Shown in pieces: positions 1-62,525 of a stretch of 64,000 bases of DNA. The notes beneath the pieces are model-generated. The model was not told the origin of the DNA. It worked only from the letters and a program-made list of their open reading frames with translations, and made no database searches. Made by a program: the position numbers and the translations under genes. This DNA is from Marsupella aquatica (taxonomy: Eukaryota > Plantae > Marchantiophyta). Positions within the stretch are counted from its first letter, which is position 1. Every line of letters begins with the position of its first letter. Where the stretch lies: contig OZ316899.1 in NCBI GenBank assembly GCA_973895155.1, positions 5,211,241 to 5,275,240 on the forward strand. The letters are read 5' to 3'.

Positions 1-3000
1 GTTAAAGAAAATTTACAAGCTTACCCTTTAGGATACTATGCAACTCGAACTCAATGCTACCATGTTCAGACTGAATCACAGAACCTCACAGAGATCTGGC
101 ATAGACGATTGGGACATCCTGGAACAAGCATGTTCCACAGAATTGTCAATAACTCTAAAGGAGTATCAAAAGAAGTACATCCTAGAGCATTCAAAGGACC
201 ATGCCTTGCCTGCTCACAGGGCAAGATGATTACTGCTCCCTCCAATTCCAAAACCGAAAACCACATACCTGCATTTCTTGAGAGACTTCATGCAGATGTT
301 TGCGGACCCATCGATCCTCCCAGTGGCCCATTTTGCTATTTTCTGGTCGTCATAGACGCAAGCTCCAAGTGGTCAAGGGTTTCCCTATTATCAACCCGGA
401 ACCTCGTTTTCTCTCGGATTCTGGCCACATTATACGACTGAGAGCTCAATTCCCAGAATATCCAATTCGAACCCTTAGGACTAATGGAGCTGGAGAGTTT
501 ACATCAAAAACTTTTGATGAATTTTGTCTCATCAACGGCATTGATTCACAATACAATGTCCCATATGTACATTTTCAAAATGGTATGACCGAGTCACTTA
601 TTAAACGTATACAACTGATCTCTTGACCTTTATTAATGCAATCCTCTCTTCCAGCGACTGCATGGGGACATGCAGTCCTACATGCTGCGTCTCTCCTTTT
701 ATACAGACGATCAACCTACAATAGCACTACACCTCATCAATTGGCATTTGGAAATTCTCCAAACATTTCACACTTGAGAATATTCGGATGTCAGTCCTCG
801 TACCCATCCTAGGTCCCAAACGGACAAAATTAGGACTTCAGAGAAGAAAAGGTATCTATGTGGGATTCGACTCTACATCGATCATCCGATACATGGAACC
901 TACCACTGCAGATATATTCAAAGCCCGCTTTACTGATTGTCATTTTTATGAAACCATTTTTCCAACTTTAACATCACCAGAGGGAAAACAGAAAACATTA
1001 CCAAATATATTCACCTGGCACGCTAGTCCTGAACTATGTCCAGATCCACGCACAGAACAGGCTGAATTAGAAGTCAGAAGAATTATCCAACTCACAAAGA
1101 TTATGGAAGTTATACCTGAGTCATTCGCAGATGCAACGAATGTAACTAAATCTCATATACCAACAATGAATACCCCATCCTGGATACAAATCGGACCTCA
1201 GTTAGCGTCTGATCAACAATTAAAACCAAAGAGAGGACGCCCTCTAGGGGCTGTTGACAAACAACTCAGACAAAGGCGAAAGCTTCCAACATCACCTGAA
1301 ACAAGACCACAAGCTCATACTTATATTTCAGAATCATATCACCCAGAGACAGCCATACATTATAATACCACTGGCCACATCTTAGATAGAACCTGAGTAA
1401 TACCTGATGATCAATTTGCTTTTCATATATCACAGGATATTACTAACTTACCTGACCCAAAATCTGTCAAAGAAGCACAAAACCAAACAGATTGGCCTAA
1501 ATGGCAAATAACAATGAACTCCGAGTTAGATTCTTTGATATCTAGAAAAGTATTTGGTCCTATAACCATTGCTTCTCCAGACCAACACCTTACAGGATAC
1601 AAAATCATATTTAACAAAAAAAGGAATTCCCAAGGAGAAATTGTGAGGTATAAAGCTTGACTCGTTGCAAAAGGTTATACTCAAATCTATGGCACAGATT
1701 ATGACCTAACATATTCTCTAGTCATGGATGTAACTACTTACCGATACTTGATAGCATTTGCAATCCAGCACAAACTTCTCATGCATCAACTTGATGTGGT
1801 GACCGCTTACCTTTACGGTCAACTTGACACTGTGATATATATGGAAGTTCCACCAGAGCTTATAGAGCGTGTCAATTTCCATGCAAATTCAAATCATGAT
1901 GCAGATATGCATAGTAGCAAACATGCAAATGAATTTGACTACGTAAATAAGCTGGTACTTCACAATGCTTCTAAAGCAATTGCATTCCAGGAAACTCCTG
2001 GAAAATACAGTACAAAGACCAAAGCAACCGATAGAAAGACTCGGTTTGCTATTCAGGTTCTTCGTTCACTTTACGGCCTAAAACAAAGTGGACGTACCTG
2101 GTACCAACATTTTAAAACAGAGATGATATCCATGGGATACAAACATTCAGAGATTGCACCTTGTCTATTCATAAAGAATGAAGAGTCTGAATTCATCATA
2201 ATTGCTATTTATGTTGATGACCTAAACTTGTTTGGTACCCACAAGATGATGCAAGAATCTATACAAACGCTTAAACGCGTATTTGAAATGAGGGATTTAG
2301 GAAGAACTTCCTACTGCATTGGACTTCAGTTTGAACATTTGAAGTCAGGCATTCTCCTGCATCAAGAGACTTACACACAAAAGGTGTTAAAACATTTCCG
2401 CATGGATTCGTTAAAAGCTGTGAAGTCCCCCATGGATATACATACCTTGGACATACAGAAAGATATGTTCAGGAAGAGAGAAGATTTTGAACCTTTACTA
2501 GGTTCAGATATGCCATACCTTTCGGCTATCGGTGCTCTAATGTTTCTATCTAATCAAACTTGACCGGACATAGCATTCGCGGTCAACTTACTCGCAAGAC
2601 ATAGCGCACAGCCCACTATCAGACACTAGAATGGTATTAAAAGGATACTCCGTTATCTAATTGGTACATCAGACTTTGGTTTATACTTTCCTTATGATGC
2701 AGATTATAATTTAACAGGATATGCTGACGCTGGCTATCTATCCAATCCACAAGATGGTAAATCTCAAACTGGATATATTTTCTTGATGGGCCCGACACCA
2801 ATTTCATGGCGCAGCACCAAACAGACTCTTACTACTACTTCTTCCAATCACTCTGAAATAATTGCTCTCTACAAAGCAAGTCGTGAGTGTTTATGGTTAC
2901 GAAAAGTCTTAGATCACATTCTGATCAACACAGGTAAATCAAAGTTAACAGAACCTACTACATTATTCGAAGATAACATGCCCTGCATCACTCAAATCAA

Positions 3001-3250
3001 AACCGGATTCATCAAAGGCGAACGTACAAAACACATTGCACCTAAGTTCTTTTTCTCACATGAACAACAAGGAAAAGAAATTGATGTACAATGGGTTCCA
3101 AGAAATCAGAACTTGGCAGATCTTCTTACAAAGTCACTACCAGCATCACTTCATCAATCACTAACTTATTCAATAGGTATATACAGCAAGACAAAACTTT
3201 TGCAGGATGCACACATAGAGGCGAACATTCTGTTTTCAGGGGGAGCATGA
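1..3250 (+). pseudogene. copia pol pseudogene (GAG-pre-integrase/integrase, RT, RNase H)
   Basis: Fragments contain GHPG..CLAC, HQLDVVTAYLYG, SLYGLKQSG, IYVDDL, ISWRSTKQ and NLADLLTK. Multiple stops and frameshifts. Confidence 0.9.
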
Positions 3251-4634: not shown

Positions 4635-4833
4635 TGTTAGGTATTTACTCAAGGTCTAGGGTTACGACATGTAACCGTGGTTAGGCTAACCATAGTCGGA
4701 GACATGGTTAGGTTAACTAGGATGCACACTGTATGCCAAGCGGTGTTTGCTTGGATAAGTGGAACTTAGGCTCATTGTTATGGAGCCACTTGAGAGATGA
4801 GGAGAGCTTACACTGTGGAGACTTGGTATAGTT
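4635..4833 (+). repeat. truncated copia LTR, same family as the LTR at 59728-60050 (inverted)
   Basis: TGTTAGGTATTTACTCAAGG...GGAGACTTGGTATAG matches the reverse complement of ~59855-60050. Confidence 0.85.
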
Positions 4834-5819
4834 GAGCTACCGCCACCTATGACCGGCTGAATTCCCCTGCTCTCCTCCGAATCTTGCTTGGCATCCTGAG
4901 CCAAGAATCGCTCCCGCAACCCCCCATTTTTGTCCCCCAAATGCTCCCTGCTTCCAAGGTCCCCTGCCTCGCCAAAGCCGCCTTTCTGAAGCTCCGCGGT
5001 CCCCCTCTCTAGATGCCTCCCAAACTCTCCCATTTCCCTACCCATCATAGGAATGTGTCCGCCATGCACCCCTCTAGCCCGCACAAAAGGTTCCACCTTT
5101 CTGTAGTAATCCATTGCTGCCATAGTTCCTTCCCTTCTTCCACGATCGAAAGGTAACAGCAATGCAACCAAGAAAAAGGTAAGAAAGCAAATAGGACTTA
5201 CCTTCTCCCACTTCTGAGCGACTCCCAAGCAGAATCCCCATAGCTCCCAATCAATCACATGCATATAATCCCCGTAGTCACTATGAGCTGCTCCACCACA
5301 ATTTCAGAGTGACACCGCAATAGTACTCCTCTGAGATCCTAGTGAAGAATCCCATGGACCAGCGCAAAGTTCCACCTAACTTCCAGAGTTAGAAGCCACT
5401 AGAACACTTCTCCCGCTTTGACTCCCGTATTAAGGTGTGGTAGAGCAGCCTCCTTGGGGAGTGGCACCTTGCCAATGTCACTCTTAAACCCAGCCAAATA
5501 CAATCCACGAGGACCAACCTCTGCAAGAAAGTGCGCCCTCATCCACCTCCTTGATGCGGCAAAGTCCACCGTTGCGTTATTTCCTCACTGGCACAACCTA
5601 AATTTTGCTTTAGCCGAGATATCACCCAGCCATGATGCCTTGATCAAATCCACCCCAACTTTTCACCGCCTATATAAGCGCTCATGCCTTATCTTCCTGA
5701 GCAGCATAGCACAAATTTACGCATCCTAGTTTGGATCCCTTCCTACCTCTCGTTAAGTGTAAACATAGCCCGCACCGCCAGTGCGCCTTTTTTAGTTCCT
5801 GTCAGTTCCTCCAAGTCTC

Positions 5820-8800
5820 CTTCCTTTTCCTATCCTTGTTGCCCTCACACCAGTAAACAGTCCAGATGCTATTATCCTCCACAAAAAGGTCTTGGCCCTC
5901 ATGGACAGTCCAAAACTCCATATTCCAGTCCATCTAGTACTCCACTCTCCCGCTTTCCTGAGAATCCCCCACATCCGGTTCAAACTGAGGGTGTCACTGT
6001 ACTCAGTCCGAATCATCCTATACACTCTTCTATTCTGAATTTGCGAAGCTCTTCAGTGAATCCAGACAGTCTGCCCAGCACCAACAATGAGGACCAGGCT
6101 CATAGCTCCATACACATTGCCTGATGCTCACCAGAGCATCCAGGAATTTCCTACCCATATCCCGGTGTTCCAGCAAGAATCCCCGAATGTTCTCCCATCT
6201 CTCACTGTTCTCCATCCTTGTCTCTCCTCTGCCCACAAATCCTGTACACACTGAATACCCAATCGCCCATAGAATCTTGTGGCAGCAGCCATGTCCTCAT
6301 GACTCCATGCCTAAAAGCCTTTCAAGCACCTAATTGTGTCTCCCACTGCCCATCTTCTTGGCACTTGGTTCATGGAACAGAATATCAAATTCGCCCGTAG
6401 CTGTTCCCATGCCTTCCAAAGCCAACCTGTATATGCTAGTCCATGAAGTGCTCGCGGGCAGGAGAGCAGCATCTTGTCCTTAAATGTGTAGTTGTTTCTC
6501 CTTACTATCTTGTAGTTGGCCCAACCAATCAATTTCAAATTTGCAGCAAAAAACATGCCCATTCCAAGCAGGGAGAATCCAGCGCCCCAGTGAACCATTT
6601 GGCAAGTAGTGCATCCAAATGGCTTATGAAATCCTTAGTTCCAAGTCCCCCCTCTGCCTTAGGACGAGAGATGCTAGCCCAAGAGACCAGTGGCACTCGT
6701 CTTCCACCTTCTTTATTATACCCCCACAAAAAATCTCTACATAGTGCAATCATTTTTCTTGCCAGCACATTAGAAACTTTTAGAAACATTGAGTGGTATA
6801 CAGGTATTGGCTGTAAAATATGCCTTATAAGCAGAGTTCTGCCTGTGAATGTCAGCATCTTGTTGGTCCAAGATGAAAGCCGTTGTCCAATTTTATCCAG
6901 GACAAAGCTGTGCAGCTGTTCCATTTTCAGGTCCACCCCCAGTGGAGCTCCAAGATATTTCTGTAGGTCCCCCCTGCCACTGATCACGCATCCAGTATCA
7001 CTGAGCCACAGTGGCGTAGTCGTTACTAGTGGTATCACAGTGGATTTCTGTAAGTTAAGTCGAACCCCTGTTGCCAATTCGTAGCATTTCACCCCTTCTA
7101 TTACCTGTTGAAAGTTTCTCTCCTTTGCCGGGATAAACATCCCCAAGTCATCCGCGAACATACGGTAACAGATGGTTAGTATCTTTGAGACTTGTATTCC
7201 TTCTAACCTGCCTGCAACCAGTTTTGCATCCATAAAATCCATCAGTGGCTGTGTTGAGATCACAAAAAGGAGAGGAGAGAAGGGGCATCCTTGTCTGACC
7301 CCCCGTTTGAGCCCAATATCAGATGAGAGCATTCCATTCAGGTGTATCCTTGATGTAGCGTGTTGCATCAATGCCTGCACCAGCTTAATGAAATTGCTGC
7401 TTATACCAAGCAAGTGCATAGTTTCCCAAATGTATCCCTGGTCTACCTAGTCAAATGCCTTCTCAAAGTCAAGTTTAAGAGAAAGTGCCTCATACTTCCT
7501 ATTTTTCACCTAGTCAAACGTCAACCATGCCAGTGATATATTTTCCAGTATATTTTGGCCAGGGATAAACCCTGTCTGCTGGGGGCTTATTAGCCAGGGC
7601 AAAATACATATCAGCCTACGAGCCAAGATTTTGGCAATCAACTTATATACTGTGTTAAGCATGGTTAGTGGCCGCCAGTCCTTTAGCATCCTTTTATCCG
7701 CCTTCTTGGGGATGAACTTGATGATCCCCTCTTTGACCCCACTCGCCAGCTTTCTTGTCAACCAGAATTCCTGTATCATGGCCACCAAGTCCTCGTGCAA
7801 GAATTCCCAACAAGCCTGGTATACCTCTGCAGACAGCCCATCTGGTCCCGGTGCCTTGTCCTTTGGGAGCATCCAAAGGGCCTCTTTAATTTCCGTGTTT
7901 GTGGGCAGCTTCTCCAACTTGGTTCTCTCTGCTGTGGTTAGTGCCGCCCTAGTATGCTCAAGCAGTCTACTACGTTCGTTTAGTGAAATCAATCGCTCCC
8001 CCTGTAATGGGTCCCCAGGAGCAAACAATTCTAGGCAAATTTGTTCCACCTACTTCATTATGTGCACCAAATCTGTAATCACCGTCCCACCTTCCAACAG
8101 CAGACCCCGCAGCAGACTCTTCATTGCTTCTTGTTCTCTCTTAGCCTTAACAGTTGCAAAGTAGAAGTGAGATGGTTCATCTCCCTCCCCCAGCCATTTG
8201 ATTTGCGCCAATCTTCTTCCTCTATGTGCCTCCTCTAGCTCCGCAGCATGTAGTAAGTCCTCACTGTCGACGTACTCTCTAAGTTTGTTTTCAGAGTATT
8301 CCTCCATTATTGTCGTCTTCAGCACCCTTAATTTATCCCGCAACAACAACAGTTCTTCCTCTCTTCGCTTAGGTGACCCTTGCTTCTCAATGATTGTACA
8401 TTTTCCTCATATTGCGACTGGCCTTATCGAAAGCCATTATTGGTTCAGTACACCCCCCTTTTCCTTCCATCCATGCCCGCTTAAGTGCTTCCACCGTTCC
8501 TTCCATTTTCACCAGGGTCGGGTTTGCTTTGAAGAGTGTCAGTCGCACCCTTCCTCCCACAGCCTATACACCATTCGTAAGTTGCACACTCAGGACCACC
8601 GGATCGTGGTCCGAGAGGGCCGAGCACCCATCATGCTCAAGTTCCCCCGTCAATTTGATCCATTCCCCATTGTTACTAAAGTAGAATCTGCCCAGCCGGG
8701 ACTGTGTTAGTATCCCATTCCTGCTTCTGCGCCATGTGTATCTAGACCCCTTGTCAATTCCTTTGAATTGTATAGCATCCACCAGGTTGAATTGCACCTT

Positions 8801-9247
8801 CAAAAAGCTCTAAAATTTGGCCTCACGTCCTTTTATCAAGGGAGAGTTGCCTGTGGAATCCTCCCGCATCTCCGTCATGTTAAAGTCCCCGCATGCAATC
8901 CAGTAGGCCGGGGGCAATCCCAGTGTAAGCTCATTCCAGAGGATTGCCCTCCTCCTGGGCAAATTGGGTGCATAGACAATGATTATTCCAAAGTTACATT
9001 CTTCATAAGCTAGAAGCGCCCATACAACTCTTCCAAGATCAAACACACCTGAATCCACAATTTTGATCCCCGGATGTATTAGTAGCAATGTGCCCCCACG
9101 CCCCTCGTCCGGGGCCAATGTAATACACTGATACAATGGCAGTATCACCCTCATAGCCACGTCAAGCCTGAACTGATCTGCCTTAATCTCCTGCAAGGCC
9201 AGAATTTCCACCCTTCCCTTTCTGGACTCAATCCGGTTTTTAACTAC
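5820..9247 (-). pseudogene. L1-clade LINE (LINE-1a) ORF2: APE endonuclease, RT and start of the C-terminal region; degenerate
   Basis: ILALQE, CGDFN, ALSDHDP, KAPGPDG, DWRPLTMLN, GVRQGCPFSP, MFADD, KYLG, KTFLWR. Continues seamlessly at 49164 once element A is removed. Confidence 0.9.
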
Positions 9248-9607
9248 TGTGACGCCGCCGGTACGGCGAGTAATGAGTAATTTGGTCTAAACCGCGCTTA
9301 GCACGCGCATTAGGGGTATATTAGGCCGCTATTATTAGCATAACGACAGTATTTAGGTAACCATTATGAGTAGGAAATCATTAGTCAATAAGGGGAATTC
9401 ATGTTCGAACTGGCGGCGTGTCGCCATTCGCACGCCCGAGTTGCGAGCGTGGAGGCCCCCCCCCCCTCGGGTCCGTATAACGAACTTAGGGAAGTGGCCA
9501 CTGACACGCGCTGACTCAGACCGGCGGAGTGCCCGGTACACTACAAGCGTGAACGGTTCAGCCTATAAGCAACGAGGAGACGTCGGGTGATCGATGAGCC
9601 CTCAAGG

Positions 9608-9615
9608 TATAAAAA
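9608..9615 (+). promoter_or_regulatory. TATA box in LTR A upstream of the LTR-encoded ORF (also at 41324-41331)
   Basis: TATAAAAA ~108 nt upstream of the ORF start codon in both LTRs. Confidence 0.55.
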
Positions 9616-9715
9616 GGGAGCCGACCCTTTGTAGTGCACCAGTCCATCAGTCCACGCGCCAACTTTGACCCCAGCTCTCTTGTTTGCTCTTAGTTGCCAC
9701 TGCTATCTCCTCTGA

Positions 9716-12096
9716 ATATCGCACACGATCCTCTCCAATTCGACCATTTGATTCTGGACGCAATTCCTATCTACCGGAAGACACTTGGCCGACTCATTGA
9801 AACACGCCAACCGGCCCCGATACGAAATCGAACACGAGTATGAGAGAGCCATCCGCCTAGCAGGACAACACCACTATATCCTTAACTTTGACTACCCATC
9901 TCAGAGCGAGCTTTACCGACCAGCAGAGGTATCAGGGTACTTCTTCAACGGAGACAAATATATTGGTTTCTGGGAAGCATTGCTTCGGCTTTCGGACGAG
10001 GTCTTCAATATCCTGAGTACGATCGACTTGCAACGGCATCACTTTGACCACATCCCGGCTCAGGTTCGGGCTATCATCAACAGCGAGTCCAGCACTACCC
10101 GTTCGACAAGGCCGTCTGCACTTGCTTCAAAGAACTTATACGAGCACCTGCAGAGCTTCATGGGAACTAGACCCTCAACCGCCGGCGCCGACCCAGTTGA
10201 TCCCATACCTGTACCCGCGCCAACACAGACTCAGGCTCAGCCTCAGTCTCAGCCTCAGCCTAGCCAACCCCCCACCGCCAATCGCCCCGCCAGTACAAGT
10301 ACGCTCCGTCATCAACGTTGTGGACCTTAGCGACGACGACGAGACTACCCCACCCTTGCTCAGGCGGCCTAGAGGAGCAAACACTCAAGGGGCCAACACT
10401 ACATCGTCCCCTCCCCATGTCCGGACCCAAGGAGTGGCTCCAGCAGACAACACGGTGACCGTGGCCGCCCCCGGCCCAATACTAACGGCGGTAGCACTAC
10501 CTATGGCCGATCGAGAGGATGGGGAGGTGTCACCCTCCTCGAGCCAGTCATGAGGGAAGAAGAGGAAGGAACCCGCTGCTGCATCCGGGTTACCAATGGC
10601 CACGGTAGCCGCGGCCAAGGTGACAATGCACCGCATGGGGGAAAACGTGCATAAAAAATCCTCCATCCCAAACATGCGGTGTACCTGAAAACTCAGGGAT
10701 TTGAGCACCTCGCCTCTCTCCCCTGGAACACTTGCAGGTACTACGGGGAGGACATGATGGAATTCGTCAAGAATTATGACGACGCACGTCAACACACTCG
10801 GCTGCGGGGAAGGAATATGTCCCTCACGGAAGAACGGCTCAGGATGATCTTTGGGTTACCCAAAGGTGACCACCGAGTCGAATCACGGGCTCCCGGGGGC
10901 AAGGGAGCCAAGTACCAATCCTTGAGTTTTCCCTCCGAGGGATCAGTGGACAACGGGTTCGTGATGAGGACCTGCCTCATCCCCGAGATAGCTGAGCGAC
11001 TGGAGTTCCAAAGGTACGCCCTCCACATGATGGAACCCCGGGGGCAGATCTCCGCTGTCCAGGTTATCCAGGTTGAGAACTATCGACCTAGGAAGTGGGC
11101 GTCGTACTTTGCTAAAAATTTCCATGAAGAGATGGAGCGGCGAAGAAAAACACTATACATTGGTGGGAAGTCGTATTTTGCTAGCCACATCAAGATCATT
11201 CTCGAGTGGTACGCTCAATTTGATTGACGAACCCTTCCCCGTGTCAACGTAACAAAGCTGGTCCCAGCTAGGTGGGTTTTCCCGGCCTTGGAGAGACGGC
11301 CCCAACCCGAGGCCCGAAGTCCAGCGGCCATACAGGCTTCACCCACCCCACCTCCACAAGTAGCTGTAGCCGTGGTCGAGGAGGTACCGGAGGAGGTACC
11401 GGATGGGTCGGTACATTTCTGATCGGACTTCTGGGAGATTTCTCTCATCAAATTGCCCAGGATACCGGGGAGTTCATGGCCCGGAAGGTAGCCTATTTCT
11501 TCAATCAGGAGTTGGTTGCCGCAGTAAAGGCAGGTCGGGCCCAGTCAGAGGCCTTTCAGAGGATAGAGCGGTACCAGGTGGAGTCCGTATACTTAAAGAA
11601 TGAAGTTGCAGCTCAAGAGGCTGAGCTTATGGAACTACGACCCAAGGTTGCAGCCACCGATGAGTTGTTAGCAAAGGCGCACGCCCTTACCTCCCTAGTC
11701 GAACAGGCCAAAGTTGGGAACGAGGCCAAGATTGCACGACTCCGGAACTAGATTGACAGTTTGAAGAATCAAACTGTCATCTGGCAGAAAGACCTGGAGG
11801 AGGCCGAAGAACGGGCCCAACGGGACACTACGGAGATAGCCACGCTACAGGCCGAAGTAGCGCGGCTCCAAACCGAAGCCGAGAAGCAGGACCAGTTGGC
11901 TGGCAAGCTGACGAGCGACGCCCAGCGGCTGGAGGAGGCATGCCAGGAGGCAGCGGAGGAGACGGACGCGGCGAAGCGAGAGAACGAATCTCTTCTAGAC
12001 CAGGTCCAGCTCCTCAAGGTGGACAACGACAGACTTCGTAAGGAGCGGGATGGCCGCTCCCACTCGGGCGGCTGTGGCAAGCGTGCCAGGCATTAG
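9716..12096 (+). pseudogene. LTR-encoded accessory ORF, 5' LTR copy (degenerate)
   Basis: Joins ORF-track pieces 9785-10330, 10044-10553, 10679-11227, 11272-11751 and 11761-12096. The start codon is ATA here and ATG at 41432. Carries a 268-bp deletion relative to the 3' LTR. Confidence 0.8.
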
Positions 12097-13003
12097 CGGT
12101 GGAGTATGAATAGAATAGGGTTAGGAATAGCTAAATCAGGCTATGGGGACAGGAACCTGCCCTAGTTAGAGCAGCATCGCCATGCTGTCCAACATTCGTA
12201 GGTTAGGATCTTCTAATAAGACACAGCCGTTTTTCGGCCTGACAGTCAGATTAGTTAGGACCTAAGTCACCAAATTTTTGGGCGGGAGGACACTCCGTTC
12301 CTCGGCCCTTAGTATTTAGTGACCCCTCGATAGAGGAGGGGGGGGGGTTTAGTCTCAGTATTGGACGTCCGTAGTATGTGCGAGGAGTCCCAACCTCTGG
12401 AGTGAAAGAGTACCAAGGGGAGGGTGTAAGACTAAGCTTGTTGGGCGAGTGCGGAGCCGGGCTCCGTTGTAGTGTACACCCTCGGCCTTGGACCTGTTCA
12501 CTCCAGAGCATTTGTGTCAACTAAGTGTACGCGTATGTCTCTTATGGAGTAAAATCCCTTCCCGTTATTTCCTTCGTGTAAATCGAGATTTTATGCTTGT
12601 GCGTATGTATGTGTGTGAATCTCGTGTATAGGTGCCAATGCTTGGCCGAACGCACTACCCAAGTAGTGCATGGGGTGCAGCTTGCGTGTACGTGGTTGCG
12701 AGCCCGGGTTGAGCACCCATATCATCAAAATCCGGATCAAAGGCGGACAATACGAAGGCTTAGAAGCCCTTAAGCCAGGGTCGATCCTGCTATCGATTGA
12801 GGTACGTTCCGGCGGCGGAACACAAATCATACCTAGGAGGTGTCCGTATATGACGATAGGTGCACTTAGCGCTATTTTACATAAGTTGGGTGCATTCCGT
12901 GCCTCCCTCCCTGCCCGAACCCTCATTTTGACAAAGGATGTGCCTGTTTAAGCCGAAGCCCGGAGTAAGGCCAAGGCTGACGACGTGACATAGCCTTTGT
13001 TTT

Positions 13004-13021
13004 TGGCGCTAGATGGAGGGG
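13004..13021 (+). promoter_or_regulatory. primer binding site, tRNA-Asn type
   Basis: TGGCGCTAGATGGAGGGG has one mismatch to the complement of the plant tRNA-Asn 3' end (from memory). It lies 13 nt after the LTR. Confidence 0.8.
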
Positions 13022-13119
13022 GCACTCTACGTGTAGTAGAGGGGAGACATGTGCGGGTGCACCTGGGCTGAATACACCAGGCCCGTGTGAGTTACTAACC
13101 ATCGCATGTATATGAGTAA

Positions 13120-15661: not shown

Positions 15662-18600
15662 TGTCAAACACTTGCCAAGGAGCTTAAGCGGCTTTTCTCC
15701 CCAAAAGACTACCTAATACCTGCTCCATGTCATACCAGGGTCACAAAGGATTGACAAAACTTCTGAAGTGTGCTTACAATGTCCAATCACTCCATACATA
15801 AGTAGTTTCAACTCTCCACTTCTAGAGAGGTAGTCCCCTTGACTACTTTTGTACTCACCCCTTCCCCTCTCCTCTACTCCAAGGATCAGCAAGGGGGATC
15901 TCCGCTCCAAGCTGTCACCTTAGAGTAGATTCTCACACAAACACCCAAGAACCCAAAGTACTTTCCTCTTCAAGCTTAAGTCTCCTCAAGACCCTCAAAG
16001 TAGTGTTACCCCTCAACCTTGCCCCCCTGGCCTTGGTTTGGGTCCACACATCCCCTTTGAGCCCTAGAGAAGGCTCCTCTATCTAAGGACTCTTCCTCTT
16101 GTTCTTACTTCTTGTTAACACCACACACCAAGCAAAGTACTTTCCACCCTCAAGCTATAATCCTCTCTAAGTCTCAAAGTAATGCTATACCTTAACCTTG
16201 CCTCCTTGGCCTTGGTTTTGTACTAGCACATCCCCTTCAAGCTTAGACCAAGATTATACCATAGCATGGACTCTTCTCTTGCTCTCATATACTTCAAATG
16301 CACTCACACTTAATGGTCACAATGAAGATTGGTAAGTCTCCTTTTATTGCATCACCTTTACAACAAAAGTTCACTACACATTCTCCACACTAAGCATGGA
16401 CCACCTCTCCTTTCTCAAGCTTAGCCCTACCTTGGCAAGGTAGAGATTTCACTTAAGAGATGAGACTCCCGGTCCCTAACAAATGAAAACTTCCTCCTTA
16501 TATACTATCTCCTTCCACATCACACCAAGCTTGACCTGGGGTCCAACTATACCTCCCCCAAGTCCTCCTAACACACAAAGTCCAACTCTATAGTTCATAG
16601 CCCACCCTACTACTTGCTATTTTGCCTCCTTCCAAGCCCTGGAATATGCCACACATGAGTGGTATGCTTTGACTTCCAAACCTACTCCCACTTATGGTCC
16701 TCCTCACCAGCTTACCAACCCACTTGAAATCTCGCAAAAAGAGTGAGTGAGTCTCAAGTTGTGCCTAGTCAAAGTTGGCCTTATTTTACTTGTAACCCCT
16801 TTACTACCCTAAGTAAACTACCCCCTATATTTACTTTTCTTAACTTGATGGCCTTACACCTTTGGCCAAAGGTAAGTACCCTTCTCTAGAGCCTAACTCA
16901 AGTGGTATGGGTGCAAGAAAGGTCAGCCCCTAAATCTGGTATTCATTCCCCTATGCCGACTTTGGTTTGCAAGTTGTCGGGACTCCCTCGTGGCCTCGGT
17001 TAAAAATATATTTGAGTGATTACTTTTCTGGGGTTCCACCTTCACCAGGGGGTGCCTTATCTTCCCCTAACTCAGCACAAAAAAATTTGGGCCCCAACGG
17101 ATACCTCTAGCCAAAGTTATGCCCATTCTCCCAAGGCCTGTTTTTGGTGTAAAGCGGGTGTAAGCGGCGGCCCGATTACACTTACCTTACATGCCCCTTA
17201 TGGGGATTCCACGTGTCATGAGGGGAGAGCACTCTCATTATACTCATGTTTCTTATGAAGAAATTGTAAGGACAGCAATGTTTGCAGCCATTTCTCTCTC
17301 GTGAATTCAATCTAAAACCACAGCATTCTCTATTGGATTCTTTCTTGTGCAGCAGTCCAGCTGATCAGCCGCCAGCCCCTCAATTTCACAGCCACCATAG
17401 CTCACAGCCAGCCTAGTCAATTTCGCAGCTAGCCCACCTCTTCAATTTTGCCGCTAGCAACACAGTCAATTTCGCAGCTAGCAGCACAGTCACATCAGCG
17501 CATTTACAGCACAACAACAGCAGATTTGAAGCACAGCAGCAGCAACCATAGCTTGATTCCTTCTCAGTCAAGCAGGTCTCTCTTCTCAATTTCGTAGCTG
17601 CCCACCTTTGCAATTTCGCAGCTAGCAGCAGCATCATTCAATTCAGCAGCATCAAGGCAGCAGCCAGCCAATTCTCATGAGCATCTCGTGCCTGATTAGT
17701 AGGAGCACCTCTAATCTAGTGTGCAGCTGTCATAGCAGCAAGCAGCCTTCCCAATTCAAAGCCAGCAGCGATCCTAATTTGCAGCCATAGCTCTTTTCCT
17801 TCTCAGCAGCCATAGCTTCTTCAATCAGCAACAGCCCTTGCTTCTTCAATCAGCAGCAGCCATTTCAATTCAGCCGCCCTTCCTTCAATTCAGCCGCCCT
17901 TCCTTCAATTCAGCCGCCCTTGTGCTCAATTGATTCCTCAAGTAATCATGCAGCACCTTTGGACAGCCTCCCGGTGCTTGACGTCCTCACCAGCCTCGTG
18001 CTTGCTCCTCCTTGCCTCGTGCTCGCTCCTCCTTGCCTCGTGCTCGCCGCGTGATCGTCGCCCACGCGGTTTACACTTAGAAAAAAATACATTTTTTTTT
18101 GGAAAAACAGCATTTTGGGGCGATTTTGGACCCCCCTCCAAAACTCACACATAAGTCCAAAAGGACTTCTGAGTAGCTCCACTGATTCTATGGACATAGG
18201 ACTATGTCCGGGTTTACTAAGATATAAACAAAACCCTATAACAACTTTTCTAAAATTAGGCAAAGAGGGTCAAGTCTTTATGTCTTCCAAAATTCTTCTC
18301 AACTTTGAGATGCTCCCAAAAAGTAACCAAGTGTGACAAAGTTGTCCCACAAGTTTCTAGGGATAGAGGGGACCATACTTAACCCACTTCCAAACTTGGA
18401 ACCCCTACATTTACCCATCAGCTATTTTTCCCGGGACCCGCTATTTGGTAACTTTGATTTTTGCCAAAATACTTATAACTCCTAGGTTAAGACCCCACTT
18501 GACTTCATACTTTTTCAGGGTTCCCTAGGGACCTCCCAGCACCCATGGGAGAAATATCAGCCAAAAATAAGATGTCCGGTGTCGGGTCATTTTTCGGTCC

Positions 18601-37541: not shown

Positions 37542-40500
37542 TCACGGATTGGGGAAAGAAGGAGCTACGGTTCGGGACACCCACAGTACGGGTATCATGG
37601 GCAATGGACGATTACCAGGGCAAAACTCCACAGGGACCCGAGGAATATGATTTGGAGACCTCGGAGGAAGAGGAACTCAATATGATTGAACTCATCTCGT
37701 CCCTGTCCGAGGAAGATGTCTTTGGAGTTGAGGCAACCCGGGAAACACATCTCCTGAATTACCCGAAGGCTACTATTGAGTCCACCCCGAGCACCTCCAC
37801 CGCCCGGGATGAGGAAACACAAAAACAACCGATCAATACGGAGGACACGGATCCAACTAAGCAGGGCACCGATGCTGCTTCTACCAGTGCAGAGCCTCGT
37901 GACCACGAACCGGCCAAACAACCACCCGAGGCCGAAAACCTGAGACCAAGACATAAGAAACAAGTCTCCTGGGATCCGTCCATCCCACAATTGGAGGAAG
38001 TAACTCCAATCCCAAAACCAATCCCGGTTCCACCCATGTACAGAGGAGTTTGATTAGCTGAACTTGATGCGAGCCTGGACCCGAGCTTGCGGAACCAGGT
38101 TGAAGTCATCAGGAAGGAGCACTACCGGAAGTACACCATGGGGATGGATAAGTCTTTTAACCTGAGCCATGCTCTGACGGGGGAGGCGGAAAAATCTATC
38201 CAAGCTTTGCTCAAGGAATATGAAGATGTGTTTGCATGGAGCCATCACGATTTAACAGGAGTCTCCCCCGAGTTAGGAAAACACACGATCAATTTGAATC
38301 TGAGGGCCCATGCAGTACGGCAGCAACAACGTCGCATGAACCCGAGGTACTCCATCTTAGTGAACGAGGAACTTGATTGTCTCCTTGCCGCAGATATCAT
38401 CTACCCGGTAATGGCCAGCAATTGGGTCTCTCCCATCGTCATTGTACCAAAAAAGGGAGGTACGGACGGAAAACCTAAGATCCGGATCTGTCAGGACTAT
38501 CGTAAGCTGAACGACGCGACCCGAAAAGACCATTACCCGTTACCATTCACGGATATGGTTCTAGATATGGTAGCCCGAAATGAAATTTATACATTCCTTG
38601 ACGGGTATTCGGGTTATAACCAAATTTGGATTCGCCTCTCAGATCAGCTCAAAACAACGTTCACTATAGAATGGGGGACTTTCACATTTCGGAGAATGCC
38701 GTTTGGACTGTGTGACGCTCCGGCCATGTTTCAGCAACTCATGATGAATATCTTCCACGATTTCCTACGGGAATTTCTGGAGATATTTATCAACGACTTT
38801 GCCATCTTTGGAACCGTCGCCATGCACCCCGAACACCTAAGACGTACATTGCAACGATGCCGAGAGGTTAACCTCAAACTACATCCCGCCAAATGCTTTT
38901 TTGGGGTGGAGGAGGGAGTGTTACTTGGGCATCGTGTGTCCAAACGGGGTATCGAGGTGGACCAAGAGAAGGTCGCGGCCTAGATGGCGGTGGTGTTCCC
39001 GGTGGATCAAAAAGTGGTACGATCCTTCTTGGGCTGTGTAAGGTATTACCATCGGTTCATTAAAGACTTTGCTAAAATTGTGTTGCCCTTAACTGAGATG
39101 ATGAAGAAGGACGCGGTGATCGAGGAGACACCCCGAAGACGGATTGCTTTCGAAGAACTCCGTAAATGACTCACCACCGCACCTATCATGGTCACTCCGG
39201 ACTGGAATAAGGAGTTCCACGTGTATGTCAATGTGTCAGGGTTCTGTATCGGATCCGTGCTCAGTTAGCTTGACGAGGACAGACGCGACCACCCCATCTA
39301 CTTTGCTAGCCGTCAATTATTCACAACCGAAAAGAATTATTCCCCCATTGATCGAGAAGCTCTGGGAATAATCTACTCGTGTAAAAATTTCCGACACTAT
39401 CTGCTCGGCTACAAGGTCATATTCCACACGGATCATGATAGCCTGAAGTACATGGTCAACAAAGCAGACGTGACGGGACGGATAGCCCGGTGGGTGCTAC
39501 TTCTCTAGGAATTTAACTACAAAGTTCGGGTTCGGCCAGGAAAGGCACACCTCAACGCCGACTTCTTTTCAAGGCTGGGCGGCGTACCAGTCGATCAGCC
39601 AATTAATGATATTTTTCCGGATGAGGAATTGTTCCACATAGGGGCGGGGACGCCAACGTGGTACGGCTCAATAATCACCTTCCTCTTAACGGGCCGCATC
39701 CCTGATGGCATCAATCAGGAAGCCACCACTGTGTTTTTAAGGAAAGCCGGGCCTTATGTCATGATACAGGGTCACCTACATAAGGAAGGAGTTAATGGGA
39801 AGTTACAACGCTGCTTAGAGTATAAGGAAACACTTATCGTGATGCGGGCCTTGCATGAAGAAGAAGCTGGAGGCCATTTTGCGGCTATCACGACAGCCCA
39901 AAAGATTCTGGACTCGGGGTATTGGTGGCCTACGTTGCATCGGGATGTACAACGCTTCATCAAGGGTTGTGACCTGTGTCAACGGGCTGGGGCCCCGAGA
40001 CGAGCTCATCATCACCCTCTCACGTCTGTGCTTCCCTTAGCACCTTTCGAAAAGTGGATTATTGATTACATCAGGCCGTTCACTCCCGTTACCCAAAGGC
40101 GAAGATGCAGGTACATCCTGCTAGCTATAGATTACTCCACTAAGTGGGTCGAAGCGCAGGCTACGGTGAAGGACGACGCCGCAACCAGCGCCAGGTTCTT
40201 ATATGAACAGATTTTCACCCGGTTCGGACCGCCCTTAGAATTGGTAAGCGACCGTGGAACACACTTCCTCAATGACACTGTAGCCGAGCTTACGGAGCGT
40301 TACCTAGTCAAGCACCGCAAGACTACCCCGTATCATCCTAAAGCCAACGGGATGGCAGAGAGAGCCAATGGTATCATTGGGAAGATCCTCAACAAAACTG
40401 TAGCTGCGCACAAAACGGATTGGGATGATAAGTTGTACGCAGCGGTGTACTCGTATAATCTAGCTTACAAAACTACTACGAGTCACAGCCCGTACTTTCT

Positions 40501-40999
40501 CGTGTTTGGCCAACATTTGTTGGTGCCCGTCGAGTTTGAAGTACACACTCCACGGGTCAGCATTTGGGATTGCTTGCCCAAACCTGAAAGTTCGTCAGAC
40601 CGAGCTTATCAGATTGAAGCCTTAGAAGAGGCACGGCTACTAGCATCTCAACACGCCGTAAACCAGCAAGCAACTTCTAAGAAGCAGCACGACAAAGGAC
40701 TACGAAAGGTTGATGTCGTGACAGGCGACCTGGTCCTTCTGTACGATAGTAGGTACATGCAGTTTCTAGGGAAGCTTCATACCCGTTGGTTAGGGCCCTT
40801 CCTAGTCAATCAGATCTACCCTAACGGATCTTTGGAGCTTGCGACGTACGCCGGTGATTTAGTCCCCACACGAGTCAGTTACGATCGTGTAAAGAAGTAC
40901 CACCATCAAGACGACGACGCCGAAAGTGATGTTCACGAGGACGCTTCACAGTTAAGCAGGGAGCTATGTGACGCCGCTGGTACGGCGAGTAATGAGTAA
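37542..40999 (+). pseudogene. element A pol (RT, RNase H, integrase) with several premature stops
   Basis: Resumes as GGRVV|TDWGKKELRFG across the B insertion. Contains RMPFGL, HHCC and the DDE integrase. The ORF ends inside the 3' LTR. Confidence 0.92.
40954..40966 (+). promoter_or_regulatory. PPT of element A
   Basis: AAGCAGGGAGCTA before TGTGACG, aligning with the PPT region of B. Confidence 0.75.
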
Positions 41000-43990
41000 T
41001 TTGGTCTAAACCATGCTTAGCACGCGTGTTAGGGGTATCTTAGGCCGCTATTATTAGCATAATGACAGTATTTAGGTAACCATTATGAGTAGGAAATCAT
41101 TAGTCAATAAGGGGAATTCATGTTTGGACTGGCGGCGTGTCGCCATTCGCACGCCCGGGTTGCAAGCGTGGAGTCCCCCCCCCTCAGGTCCTATAACAAA
41201 CTTAGGGAAGCGGCCACTGACACGCGCTGACTCAAACCGGCGGAGTGGCCAGTACACTACAAGCGTGAACGGTTCAGCCTATAAGCAACGAGGAGACGTC
41301 GGGTGATTGACGAGCCCTCAAGGTATAAAAAGGGAGCCGACCCTTTGTAGTGCACCAGTCCATCAGTCCACGCGCCAGCTTTGACCCCAGCTCTCTCGTT
41401 TGCTCTTAGTCGCCACTGCTATCTCCTCTGAATGTCGCACACGATCCTCTCCGGTTCGGCCATTTGATTCTGGACGCAGTTCCTATCTATCGGAAGACAC
41501 TTGGCCGACTCATTGAAACACGCCAACCCGCGCCAATATGAAATCAAACGCTAGTACGAGAGAGCCATCCGCCTAGCAGGACGACACCACTATATCCTTA
41601 ACTTTGACTACCCGTCTCAGAGCGAGCTTTACCGACCAGCAGAGGTATCAGGGTACTTCTTCAACGGAGACAAATATATCGGTTTCTGGGAAGCATTGCT
41701 TCGGCTTCCGGACGAGGTCTTCAATATCTCGGGTACGATCAACTTGCAACGACATCACTTCGACCACATCCTGGCTCAGGTTCGGGCTATCATCAACAGC
41801 GAGTCTAGCACTACCCGTTTGACAAGGCTGTCTGCACTTGCTTTGGAGAACTTATACCAGCACCTGCAGAGCTTCATGGGAACTAGACCCTCAACCGCCG
41901 GCGCCGACCCACTTGACCCCATACCCGTACCCGCGCCAACGCAGACTCAGGCTCAGCCTCAGTCTCAGGCTCAGCCTAGCCAACCCCCACCGCCGATCGC
42001 CCCGCCAGTACAAGTACGCTCTGTCATCAACGCTGTGGACCTTAGCGACGATGACGAGGCTACCCCACCCTTGCTCAGGCGGCCTAGAGGAGCAAACACT
42101 CAAGGGGCCGACACTACATCATCCCCTCCCCATGTCCGGACCCAAGGAGCGGCTCCAGCAGACAACACGGTGACCGTGGCCGCCCCGGGCCCAATACTAA
42201 CGGCGGTAGCACTACCTATGGCCGATCGAGAGGATGGGAAGGTGTCACCCTCCTCGAGCCAGTCACGAGGGAAGAAGAGGAAGGAACCCGCTGCTGCATC
42301 CGGGTTACCAATGGCCACGGTAGCCGCGGCCAAGGTGACAATGCACCGCATGGGGGAAAACGTGCATAAAAAATCCTCCATCCCAAACATGCGGTGTACC
42401 TGAAAACTCAGGGATTCGAGCACCTCGCCTCTCTCCCCTGGAACACTTGCAGGTACTACGGGGAGGACATGATGGAATTCGTCAAGAATTATGACGACGC
42501 ACGTCAACACACTCGGCTGCGGGGAAGGAATATGTCCCTCACGGAAGAACGGCTCAGGATGATCTTTGGGTTACCCGAAGGTGACCACCGAGTCAAATCA
42601 TGGGCTCCCGGGGGCAAGGGAGCCAAGTACCAATCCTCGAGTTTTCCCTCTGAGGGATCAGTGGACAATGGGTTTGTGATGAGGACCTGCCTCGTCCCCG
42701 AGATAGCTGAGTGACTGGAGTTCCAAAGGTACGCCCTCCACATGATGGAACCCCGGGGGCAGATCTCTGCTGCCCAGGTTATCCAGGTTGAGAACTATCG
42801 ACCTAGGAAGTGGGCGTCGTACTTCGCTAAAAATTTCCATGAAGAGATGGAGCGGCGAAGAAAGACGCTATACATTGGCGGGAAGGCGTATTTCGCTAGC
42901 CACATCGAGATCATTCTTGAGTGGTACGCTCGGTTTGATCGACGATATCGTATGCTAACAAAAGCAAATATCATCGAATATATGCTAAAAACTCGGTGTT
43001 CGTTCCTGTGAAAGAACAAGAATGGGATGAAAAGATGTTTTAAAGTGTTTTGAGTGGTTTAGAGATGGTACTCAACATCTATAAGAAAAATAGAATCTTA
43101 AACAAAACACAAGGAATTAAAAAAATAAGAACAAAGTGACGTTTGCTATATAACAAAATCTTAGAGCTTTTAGAGGTATAGTTTAGCAATATTTAACTCC
43201 GTCACCATGTCTTAAGAAAGAGCTATGGCATTATTTGAGACGTTGATAAGTCAAATATAACCTTGCTATAACTGCTCTCTAGGTTTCCATCATAAATCTA
43301 AGTTTAAGAAGTGTCTATGCGCACAAAACCCAAGATAAGTTTCAGATTGTGTGTATAGTAGTGTGTCATTAAAATGCCTGCAACATGTTTCCTTCTTCAG
43401 CGATGCGCAATTCCAAAGAAAAACTAATGCACATTCAGTATACCACAATGGTACTTCAAATCCGTGAATTAAGAATGTCGCTACTTCTTAATCATATAGA
43501 TTTCTATTTCTTGATTTCATGCAATACTTATCTTCCAAAGATAAGTCCTTCATGTAAATACAGAAATGGACAACAAATGTTGTAGTTTGGATTAGGCACC
43601 GACCAACGGATCTTCTAATACATTCCACAAACTATATTTTTATGGGTTTTACTTCTTACGGTAATTGCAACATGCATTACCATACGAAGGAGGGGTAGAC
43701 TCCTAGCACAAGTAATCAAATTCCAAGGTATGCAAATCTTCCTTGCAAAATTGCATTACACGTACAAGGGACAAAACTCCAAGATGAGGAGATGCAAATA
43801 ACTATCCACACTGTCTCAAAATGAGACTGGTATCACAATAAGTACATGAGATCGCCCACGAGCTAAGGAGAATGAAGAGACATGCCTCTTCATTTCCTAA
43901 GTCTAAACTAAGTAAAGTAAAAGTCAACTTTGACTAAGGGCTATCAAATGGTCAAAGCTAAGTAAAAGTCTACAAAATAAAATACTAATC

Positions 43991-46239
43991 TCATACTGTA
44001 ATAGGAGGAGGGTCGACTACAAGTAGAGGGAGGCGAGCTACATAACCAAGGGCTATCTTCCCTTTGGTCCTCTGTCCCTTCAAATACTGTCGACGGAAAA
44101 GGTCCTCACGGTAACAAATCAAACAAGGCTCACTGGTCTTCTGGATGGGATGTCCATCTGGTCCGATCCAAACAAAGTAATCTGATGGCCATGGAATGTC
44201 TGGAGCTGGAAGAGGGAAAGGTGCTATGACCTTTCTACAATGATAAACCCAACTCCAACGGTTAGGAGTCTCAATCGTGGGTAATCTCAGCTTGTCGATA
44301 GGTAGCCATAGAATACCACGAGAAATCGGAACCATGTCGTAGGTGTGTGGAAAAGGGAAAGACTCACGACCAAACATAAGTGGAGGTAAAGGAGGTGCAA
44401 GGGGAGTGTGTGCGTCGATGAGTGACGTAATCATCCTATCAAACTGGGCGGGAAAGACAAAAAGAGGCTCAATGTCGGCAACAGAAGAGACAATAGGAGG
44501 CTGAGACATCAAAGGAGTAGGAGCTATAAATGGTACACTGGGAGGCTCTATAGTCTCAGGCTCAGGCTCAGTCTTGGGAATAGGCTCAGGAATAGGTTCA
44601 TCTCCTTCCATGGTAGGAGAGGGAAATGAATCATCAAGGGGTGATAGGGTGGTATCCTCAATAGAGAAAAATGGATCTGGAGGGGGTACGGATGAAGGGG
44701 GTAAAGGCTCAGGGGTATGAGATGGAGGGTGCTCAGGTGAAAATGTAGGAGGGATAGGGGAATCGAGAATAGGGGAAAGAATGGGATCAGGTAGAGGGGG
44801 TGTAGGTGAGGATGGAGGAGGGAGTGAAGGGTCAGCAATAGGTAGCTCCGGCTCATCCACATCCATAGGGTGATCAGGCTGTGGTGAAGGTGTAAGGGGT
44901 GAAACATGAGGGGGTGGGACGGTACGAGACTTGGAAAGCAAAGCACGAATGCAGTCTTGGGAATAGGCTCAGGAATAGGTTCATCTCCTTCCATGGTAGG
45001 AGAGGGAAATGAATCATCAAGGGGTGATAGGGTGGTATCCTCAATAGAGATAAATGGATCTGGAGGGGGTACGGATGAAGGGGGTAAAGGCTCAGGGGTA
45101 GGAGATGGAGGGTGCTCAGGTGAAAATGTAGGAGGGATAGGGGAATCGAGAATAGGGGAAAGAATGGGATCAGGTAGAGGGGGTGTAGGTGAGGATGGAG
45201 GAGGGAGTGAAGGGTCAGCAATAGGTAGCTCCGGCTCATCCACATCCATAGGGTGATCAGGCTGTGGTGAAGGTGCAAGGGGTGAAACATGAGGGGGTGG
45301 GATGGTACGAGACTTGGAAAGCAAAGCACGAATGCAGTCAAGTAACTGTAGAGGGGTACAACTCAAGAGTCTAGTGGCCTCATCTACCAAATGCTGGTTG
45401 AAACCAGCCACACTAGCTAGTCGCTCAGCATCACCAACAAAATCAGTCCATGGCGTGTAAGAAGTGGAAGCAACAAAAGAGGGAGAAGTCATCCCTGGTA
45501 GATCTGGTGCTGTCGTTTGCTCCACTGGAGGGGGTCTCGGAGATGTCATTGGTGGTGGAGTCAACTCTCTTGCTAACTCTGGCTGAGGTAGCTCAAAGTG
45601 TCTCGCTCTCCTCCTCCAATCGCTCAGCTCCACTGGTAACAAGCAGCCTCTCAAAAAGTAAATGTGCGCCAAGTAGGGTGTCAGATAGGTATCATCGGTA
45701 GTAGACAAGACAGCCACCTGCTTGGCAATCACCTCCAAAAGAGCTAAGGCCCAGTTGATCCTCCTCTTGCCGGTCCATGATACAATGATAGAGCTGGTCA
45801 AGTAAACCATAGCCCTGGTGGGTTTGGTCGGATGAAAGATAGGTACAAGGAATCAGAGTAGATGAGCTAACTCCCGGTTCCTGCACTGATCAATCTTCCA
45901 ACCAGACCTCCGGTCCCTGGTACCTCTAAAATAGGGGACAGTCAAGTCCTCTCCAACAGAGATAAGTCTCTCTCCCTCCTGGCTCAACTGGTACACCTCA
46001 GAAATAACGGCGGTGGTACACACATCAGCTGAACCTCTAGTAGAACTCCGAAAAGTGCCAGCTCAGGGTGGACGAAGAAAATCGGCAATGATGGACCCAT
46101 GCACTATATCCCAAGGAAGAAAAAGTAAGGAACTCAAGCCCATCTCTACCAGGTTACTAAGGAGTCTAAAGTAAGCCTTAGGACCTGGAGGTAAGGTCAC
46201 CCTGATGGCCTTACTAATTGGTAAGCTTCTGGTGGCCAT
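43991..46239 (-). pseudogene. ORF inside solo LTR C (621 aa when reconstructed)
   Basis: ATG at 46239 (MATRSLPISKAIRV) is in frame with ORF 44548-45810 through two TGA codons. Removing one 383-bp duplicate joins it to 43991-44941, giving 1866 nt = 622 codons. Confidence 0.8.
44569..45339. repeat. 383-bp tandem duplication in the Pro-rich linker of ORF C
   Basis: GTCTTGGGAATAGGCTCAGG recurs at 44571 and 44954, with CAGTC microhomology at the junction. Confidence 0.9.
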
Positions 46240-48680: not shown

Positions 48681-48844
48681 GCTTGTGCGTATGTATGTGT
48701 GTGAATCTTGTGTATAGGTGCCAACGCTTGGCCAAACGCACTACCCAAGTAGTGCACGGGGTGCTTGTGCGTATGTATGTGTGTGAATCTCGTGTATAGG
48801 TGCCAACGCTTGGCCAAACGCACTACCCAAGTAGTGCACGGGGT
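48681..48844. repeat. 82-bp tandem duplication in A 3' LTR only
   Basis: GCTTGTGCGTATGTATGTGTG at 48681 and 48763; single copy in the 5' LTR (~12596). Confidence 0.85.
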
Positions 48845-49158
48845 GCAGCTTGCGTGTACGTGGTTGCAAGCCCGGGTTGAGCACCCATATCATCAAAATC
48901 CGGATTGAAGGCGGACAATACGAAGGCTTAGAAGCCCTTAAGCCAGGGTCGATCCTGCTATCGATTGAGGTACGTTCCGACGGTGGAACACAAATCATAC
49001 CTAGGAGGTGTCCGTATATGACGATAGGCGCACTTAGCGCTATTTTACGTAAGTTGGGTGCATTCCGTGCCTCCCTCCTTGCCCAAACCCTCATTTTGAC
49101 AAAGGATGTGTCTGTTTAAGCCGAAGCCTAGTGTAAGGCCAAGGCTGACGACGTGACA

Positions 49159-54818: not shown

Positions 54819-54941
54819 TCTACTTTCAAACAACAGACCATAGTCTATTGTGCCCTTAAGATACCCGAGAATCCATTTCACAGCCTCCCAATGTACCTTC
54901 CCTGGATTTGACATGAATCTACTCACTTTGCCCATTGCTAG
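54819..54941 (-). pseudogene. copia RT C-terminal fragment (element F)
   Basis: MGKVSRFMSNPGKVHWEAVKWILGYLKGTIDYGLLF. Confidence 0.85.
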
Positions 54942-62322: not shown

Positions 62323-62525
62323 GTAAATCGATCCCATTGCTCATTCATTTAGTCATTGGGATTCATGTTGTTAACTTTATGCTCAATTTGGTCAAATTTC
62401 TTACGAAAGTTTATGATACGAGTACGATCTTTTGTTTCTCTTTTAATTAGTAGTAACAGAACTTTGTTCACATGATGTTGAATTGACGTTTTTGCCCTGG
62501 TATGTATTTTCACATTGTCATATAG
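62323..62525 (+). other. predicted GT-AG intron 1 in the transposase
   Basis: GAG|GTAAAT...CATATAG|GTG; splicing keeps the frame (WLEDTE|VEYFFK); AT-rich. Confidence 0.65.

Follow-up and report, generated by a model that had tools for sequence, protein, structure and literature searches.

The window, by which we mean the whole stretch of 64,000 nucleotides analysed here, contains a nest of transposable elements. Self-comparison revealed long direct repeats at 9248-12990 and 40967-49158, the second of which is broken by an insertion. These repeats delimit element A (9248-49158), which is flanked at either end by the 5-bp target duplication ACTAC (9243-9247 and 49159-49163). The 5′ LTR (9248-12990, + strand) is 3743 nt long and has TG...CA ends, and the 3′ LTR (40967-49158, + strand) includes a foreign segment that we call insertion C. 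Across an alignment of 3727 nt, the two LTRs differ by 185 substitutions, of which 155 are transitions (K2P 0.052). The 5′ LTR lacks 256 nt that are present in the 3′ LTR copy, and the difference falls within the gene that is the subject of this report, near 11392-11410. The insertion point of A interrupts the endonuclease frame of a LINE, which resumes on the far side; this split LINE, with a DUF4283 ORF1, occupies 6535-9286 together with 49253-50644.

Between the LTRs lies a decayed gag-PR-RT-RH-INT region (13238-40999, + strand), which is itself interrupted by a further element, B (15662-37536). A purine-rich tract (40950-40966, + strand), near-identical to the corresponding tract of B, stands directly 5′ of the 3′ LTR. 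The original prediction held that integrase runs right up to this polypurine tract, and the frame in fact goes through it and terminates 33 nt into the 3′ LTR (region 40930-40999). At the other end, a primer-binding-site-like sequence beginning TGG (13005-13022, + strand) lies 14 nt past the end of the 5′ LTR. The offset (12991-13004 in A) is 22 nt in B, and in both elements the site comes directly after TTGTTTT. In the pol pieces of A as well as in the polyprotein of B, RH runs straight into INT. No additional archaeal-type RNase H, the mark of the Tat/Ogre/Retand clade, was found in the decayed pol pieces of A or in the complete 2039-aa polyprotein of B, and no chromodomain family matched at E ≤ 1 in 39509-40996. 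Based on the gag-PR-RT-RH-INT order, the direct TG...CA LTRs, the 5-bp duplication and the lack of a detectable chromodomain, the repeats of A are true LTRs of a Ty3/gypsy element outside the chromoviruses. The nearest named reverse transcriptases belong to the liverworts Calypogeia (62-65%) and Riccia (57-61%), with angiosperm enzymes at 37-53%, and the lineage of A is probably a liverwort one.

Each LTR of A contains one 875-codon sense frame. The prediction of one long sense ORF per LTR is borne out in this respect, but both copies are broken, with four in-frame stops each in addition to frameshifts. The 5′ copy (9716-12096, + strand) is a pseudogene without a start codon; it has stops at 9749, 10551, 11225 and 11749, two frameshifts near 10268 and 10654, and one large deletion, the 256-nt loss mentioned above. 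The 3′ copy (41432-48180, + strand) has kept its start codon, carries stops at 41465, 41552, 42712 and 47914 and a single frameshift near 42370, which is the same as that near 10654, and is split by insertion C. Once C and its duplicated target are removed, this copy measures 2624 nt, one base less than 875 codons including the stop. It had been proposed to close into a single 875-codon frame on exactly this correction; its length agrees with that, but the four stops remain. Both copies have the frameshift near 10654/42370 and a stop at codon 12. Most likely these two lesions predate the insertion of A at this site, the alternative being gene conversion between the LTRs.

The gene may be embedded in a transcription unit of its own. 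The sole canonical TATA(A/T)A(A/T) of the LTR (9608-9615, + strand; 41324 in the 3′ copy) is likely to be the accessory-gene promoter. It lies 108 nt upstream of the start position, as had been foreseen, and in the 3′ copy the first ATG downstream of it is the gene start. From the end of the frame at 12096 it is 894 nt to the end of the LTR (about 900 nt had been estimated), and this stretch is a non-coding tail (12097-12990, + strand) with AATAAG at 12215 as a candidate polyadenylation signal. At 9670-9695, about 25 nt upstream of the start position, a pyrimidine tract ending in TAG might act as a core-promoter element, or else as a splice acceptor enabling expression of the 3′ LTR copy from a spliced RNA.

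Two more copies of the LTR lie downstream of A. The third (51822-54819, + strand) is diverged (70-79% identical), lacks its 5′ end and contains the same broken gene, and the fourth is a fragment (54960-55895, + strand; about 71% identical) consisting of the last gene codons and the LTR tail. In all four LTR copies of the window, the C-terminal end of the gene directly abuts the same conserved tail, and neither introns nor termini or a target duplication of its own were seen around the gene. The region is thus not a separate insertion, and the accessory gene lies wholly inside the LTR, as had been claimed.

For comparison with relatives of A, we used four related sequencing runs (two organisms, two studies), examined solely at the level of contigs, which cover the LTR in all of its 30 bins. 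The stop at 10551-10553 was absent from at least 99% of the depth in the four runs, and the frame at 10652-10657 was intact in some contigs of each. Judging from the 3′ copy and the homologous proteins, most members of the family may have the start codon and read through codon 12. A naturally intact gene was seen neither among the window copies nor among the contigs of the related runs, none of which spans the gene. In contigs of two of the four runs, position 12005 is joined to 9251, such that the coiled-coil region is fused to the start of an LTR, which suggests an element inserted in an LTR of its own family.

That the frame is not a product of chance is indicated by the comparison of the A gene with the third LTR copy. 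Over 570 codons (six codons were skipped because of stops), dS is 1.14 and dN 0.22, giving a dN/dS of 0.19 (bootstrap 0.14-0.25). The differences are distributed over the codon positions as 135/104/256, the third position thus accounting for 256 of 495. By part, the ratio is 0.12 in the core, 0.21 in the coiled coil, 0.30 in the linker and 0.16 in a 37-codon N-terminal piece. As controls, the two shifted frames gave ratios of 0.87-2.9 and the non-coding tail 0.62-0.91. The proposal that this is a protein-coding gene is therefore upheld: dN/dS is far from 1, even though no intact copy was seen. Since the in-frame ratio is low between two copies that are both LTR-borne and have the same tail, over a dS of 1.1, the substitution pattern indicates that the gene was held by purifying selection while residing in the LTR. 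The ratio of 0.51 between the two LTRs of A itself was rejected as a sign of selection; the differences there are spread 41/29/45 over the codon positions, the method is affected by the transition bias, and we read them as neutral decay under this bias. The tail is less diverged than the gene: 12097-12990 and 53940-54815 differ by about 15%, and synonymous sites of the gene by 54-68%. This would mean either strong constraint on the tail or an exchange of tails between subfamilies.

The predicted layout of the protein was recovered in full. An N-terminal domain of about 110 aa (9752-10075, + strand) belongs to no known family, but is conserved, with a BLASTP E of 4e-13 to the homologue P0003. 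Phmmer finds it in two of 40 homologues and a third aligns weakly; their starts agree with the ATG of the 3′ copy. Against PDB sequences, this domain gave nothing below E 0.4. It is followed by a Pro/Gln linker, by the basic motif GKKRK (10554-10568, + strand), a candidate nuclear localisation signal, and by a core of 190 aa (10655-11224, + strand). The C-terminal part is a coiled-coil region terminating in GKRARH (11416-12093, + strand), which matched only coiled-coil Pfam families, all of them below cut-off; a crude coiled-coil score was clearly above shuffles in just one of 17 long homologues. No hydrophobic segment of membrane length, such as an env-like extra ORF would encode, was found in the three pieces scanned, where the top 19-residue hydropathy was 1.49.

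The core has relatives, but not in Pfam. A full HMMER search with it retrieved 41 proteins at E ≤ 0.001, one of which is a false match due to a G5 domain, leaving 40 homologues. A word-index search with the core gave no match, and homologue loci were sought in metagenome contigs and viral contigs and none found. Neither the N-terminal part nor the core is matched by any Pfam family. The PMD, Transposase_28, Transposase_32 and Athila ORF profiles that had been suggested for comparison were not reached: PF10536 (PMD), PF09331 (DUF1985), PF04195 (Transposase_28), PF20167 (Transposase_32) and PF03078 (Athila ORF-1) matched neither the core at E ≤ 1 nor any of the 41 retrieved proteins at E ≤ 0.05, and the related domain in insertion C matched none of them at E ≤ 5.

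A structural model of the core points to a known fold. From an alignment of 40 rows (38 homologues plus two window pieces; P0026, P0027 and P0029 were left out), the core was modelled with a pLDDT of 93.9 and a pTM of 0.88, as compared to a pLDDT of only 33 from the single sequence. The first rank in Foldseek was the VANC21-DNA complex (TMq 0.50, E 0.93), and realignment of the model with VANC21 gave Z 7.2 and an rmsd of 3.9 over 178 of the 190 residues. When 48,161 chains were searched independently, VANC21 again came out first, at Z 7.1 (rmsd 4.0 over 178 residues), and the chain ranked after it had a Z of 2.4. Identity to VANC21 (residues 307-530) is 9-11%, and according to the structure tool a Z below 8 may reflect a common arrangement. 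The match nevertheless extends over the entire domain and has no close competitor. The model matched no viral structure and the core sequence nothing in the PDB; at the level of leads only, the ESM Atlas pointed to DUF1985 and PMD clusters with scores of 0.86-0.87. With a moderate Z and one solved relative, the core is thus predicted to belong to the VANC/PMD fold superfamily, of the DUF1985/PMD type.

A second instance of this domain family is found in insertion C itself (42946-47065, − strand; 4120 nt). It is flanked by a 5-bp duplication, GACGA, has TG at one end, the other end being decayed, and contains no terminal direct repeats. From these features we read it as likely the solo LTR of another family. 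Within it lies a broken ORF (43991-46239, − strand), whose N-terminal part appears to be a distant member of the core domain family: the upstream piece, with X at two stops, aligns to the family profile with an hhalign probability of 90.8 (E 1.2e-6, 137 columns, 18% identity), and the downstream open piece alone gave no match to that profile. Upstream of the ORF there is a cluster of GGACG(G/T)C motifs (46606-46844, − strand) that resembles a target array of the VANC type; it was noticed post hoc and exceeds shuffles at fractions of 0.005-0.01. Insertion C also contains an internal tandem duplication of 383 nt.

Element B (− strand), a relative of A, is different in this respect. It is a tandem LTR-internal-LTR-internal-LTR array with the target duplication TGTAG, is 100% identical over 12,530 nt, has identical LTRs and contains two open 2039-codon gag-pol frames; it reflects either a tandem event of very recent date or a duplication in the assembly. 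Its 3.2-kb LTRs contain no ORF of 150 codons. Since B has a fully open gag-pol without such an ORF, the gene is not required by every member of the lineage. We also considered whether the LTR of A grew by a shift of the polypurine tract, but rejected this because the ORF-less B has its tract at the same place. In the non-coding LTR of B, short tandem arrays (period 14-25 nt) follow one another at 17415-18047 and are possibly protein-binding arrays.

What might such a protein do? VANC contains a DUF1985 domain (Hosaka 2017, PMC5735166), binds short motifs and causes methylation loss in cognate elements, and VANC21 is predicted to dimerise via a coiled coil (PMC13547354). We consider it about an even bet (a probability of roughly 0.5) that the LTR-borne gene specifies a trans-acting nuclear DNA-binding factor with a VANC21-like core, which would keep its own family out of silencing. 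In such a mechanism, transcription would begin from the TATA box at 9608 and yield an mRNA with the accessory gene as its first ORF and a polyadenylation site in the LTR tail. With both ends of the mRNA inside the LTR, any LTR, and thus also a solo LTR, would constitute a whole transcription unit. The basic motifs would serve nuclear import and the coiled coil oligomerisation, and the core would bind short motifs in family members, such that methylation is lowered or transcription raised, as VANC does for VANDAL elements. As the protein would act in trans, an element whose own gene is dead could still transpose, in keeping with the two lesions common to both LTRs of A.

We count in favour of this mechanism the selection on the gene, the family of homologues, the confident model, the VANC21 match, the ESM Atlas leads, the lack of a membrane-length segment, the frames kept open at two lesion sites in the related runs and the presence of the domain in the second family C. 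Against it stand the moderate fold match, the Foldseek E of 0.93 and the low identity, as well as the failure to see an intact copy, the coiled-coil score of the homologues and the open gag-pol of B without the gene. Furthermore, a shared fold is no proof of function, and MAIN and MAIL1, with the same fold, promote silencing (PMC5418596). The non-coding LTR of A yielded no dense motif array of the kind that is the hallmark of VANC; one of six k-mer tests there reached 0.04. The VANC21 motif YAGTATT was rejected as the target in A, as 18 occurrences were found vs 12.7 expected. The nuclear anti-silencing or chromatin factor that had been guessed at gains independent support from the VANC21 match, to the extent that the predicted fold holds. 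As to where in the LTR the gene would lie, the absence of a second TATA from the tail favours a position in R, ahead of gag as in Ogre-type elements, and the TATA of B, at a distance of about 840 nt from the end of its LTR, speaks for a long U3.

A different role, which we regard as unlikely, would be that of a tether or chaperone for transposition, which rides with the particle or the pre-integration complex and aids nuclear entry or steers integration to repeat-rich chromatin, leaving methylation unchanged. The long coiled coil and the basic motifs would suit such a protein, A does sit within a nest of other elements, and nuclear-import roles have been proposed for additional ORFs of plants (PMC7264820). 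However, the sole clear fold match is to a DNA-bound anti-silencing factor, and B nests in the same region with an LTR that has no such gene. The parent of A also seems to have transposed when its gene was already dead, although a supply in trans would permit this.

The fold could also accommodate the opposite activity. Since the host proteins MAIN and MAIL1 are described as promoting silencing (PMC5418596, PMC13547354), the LTR gene might encode a comparable repressor, or a copy-number brake acting on its own or competing families, and its dose would then rise with the number of LTRs and so scale with copy number. We hold this to be rather improbable: the closest solved match is an anti-silencer, and the family looks abundant, with 4,652-10,834 contigs per related run, figures that do not amount to a copy number.

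Still less probable, in our view, is that the gene is a captured passenger or nested insertion without a role for the element, and that the signs of selection were earned before capture. Such an origin could account for every window copy being broken, for the absence of the gene from B and for two lesions being older than the insertion of A. It is difficult to reconcile with the low dN/dS, which was measured between two LTR-borne copies with a common tail at a dS of 1.1, with the lack of visible introns or termini, and with the homologue in a second LTR-like element. Finally, the notion that the repeats are a segmental or recombination duplicate of the element's 3′ internal region, which would make the gene an ordinary extra ORF between pol and LTR, is hardly credible: the integrase frame does extend 33 nt into the repeat, and the distance between the LTR end and the primer site is 14 nt, compared with the 0-5 nt used in PMC6317226, but the TG...CA ends with matching 5-bp duplications, the LINE frame interrupted at precisely this point and a purine tract placed as in B all speak for genuine LTRs.

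Returning to the reading of the gene as encoding an anti-silencing factor, its closest counterpart would be VANC21 of the VANDAL21 Mutator-like DNA transposons (9LNJ/9LNK). The two have in common the predicted fold of the core and, as far as the model can be trusted, the general character of a transposon-encoded accessory protein with a coiled coil that is selected and likely nuclear. Unlike VANC21, the gene of A is carried by a retrotransposon, in its LTR, and its product has an extra N-terminal domain, no match to the DUF1985 or DUF287 families of Pfam, and a search for a motif array in A revealed none. PMC13547354 describes VANC as dicot-specific and also reports a common fold for VANC and the PMD protein MAIN. 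Via this published match, the fold of MAIN and MAIL1 is likely the same as that of the A core; they are angiosperm host genes that promote silencing (Ikeda 2017, PMC5418596), unlike the gene studied here.

Among retrotransposons, the Tat/Ogre elements come closest. From gymnosperms onward, they have extra ORFs with PMD and coiled-coil domains, in the internal region and in one copy (Ustyantsev 2015, PMC4408406; Neumann 2019, PMC6317226). The host of the A gene is likewise a non-chromovirus gypsy element, its product would combine a globular domain of PMD-type fold with a following coiled coil, and the gene in the 5′ LTR is a sense ORF upstream of gag, as described for Tat lineage IV. Unlike in Tat/Ogre, the gene of A is in both LTRs, a second RNase H was not found, and PF10536 was not reached. 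The same two papers report moss Tat-like and Phygy elements as having no such extra ORFs. Additional ORFs of plants are placed in the internal region (PMC7264820), and extra ORFs of plant retrotransposons are stated to be of no known function (PMC7264820, PMC4408406). Our literature search, incomplete in coverage, found no report of a plant LTR-borne gene; the one plant match, PMC1560396, concerns a gene within an element.

Coding sequence in a terminal repeat has precedents in animal retroviruses, namely MMTV sag, the overlap of HIV nef and the bel region of foamy viruses. There, too, it is copied to both ends of the element; unlike the 875-codon gene of A, the proteins are much shorter, and they are unrelated animal-virus proteins. 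The class of accessory gene is already known, and what is new, as far as we have searched, is its location in a plant LTR, the probable liverwort lineage, a domain family invisible to Pfam and the predicted VANC21 fold.

These features bear on several questions. PMD is described as angiosperm-only in PMC8616336 and as first appearing in Tat elements of gymnosperms in PMC4408406, and its origin, from host genes or from gypsy elements, is stated as open in PMC5418596. A domain family that Pfam does not see, from what is probably a liverwort lineage, is of immediate relevance to this question. In the literature examined, sequence-specific anti-silencing has been demonstrated only for VANDAL DNA transposons, and a retrotransposon gene with a VANC21 fold would provide a concrete and testable hypothesis. 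The placement in the LTR would further mean that solo LTRs, commonly deemed inert remnants, could go on making a trans-acting chromatin factor. Taken to its widest extent, and here we are distinctly tentative, gypsy elements of early-diverging land plants, in at least two families (A and C), might carry a VANC-type gene for sequence-specific anti-silencing in the LTR, each insertion or solo LTR being a stand-alone cassette acting in trans, and the domain might be an older, retrotransposon-borne relative of the angiosperm PMD and VANC.

The remainder of the window contains several further features. Decayed transposase-like frames without a Pfam match lie at 61689-63759, and remnants that appear copia-like by inspection at 725-3250. 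A second LINE fragment, with a zf-RVT domain, is located at 57883-59274, and a sequence of 197 nt occurs in two copies of opposite orientation that are 94% alike, at 4635-4831 and 59854-60050.
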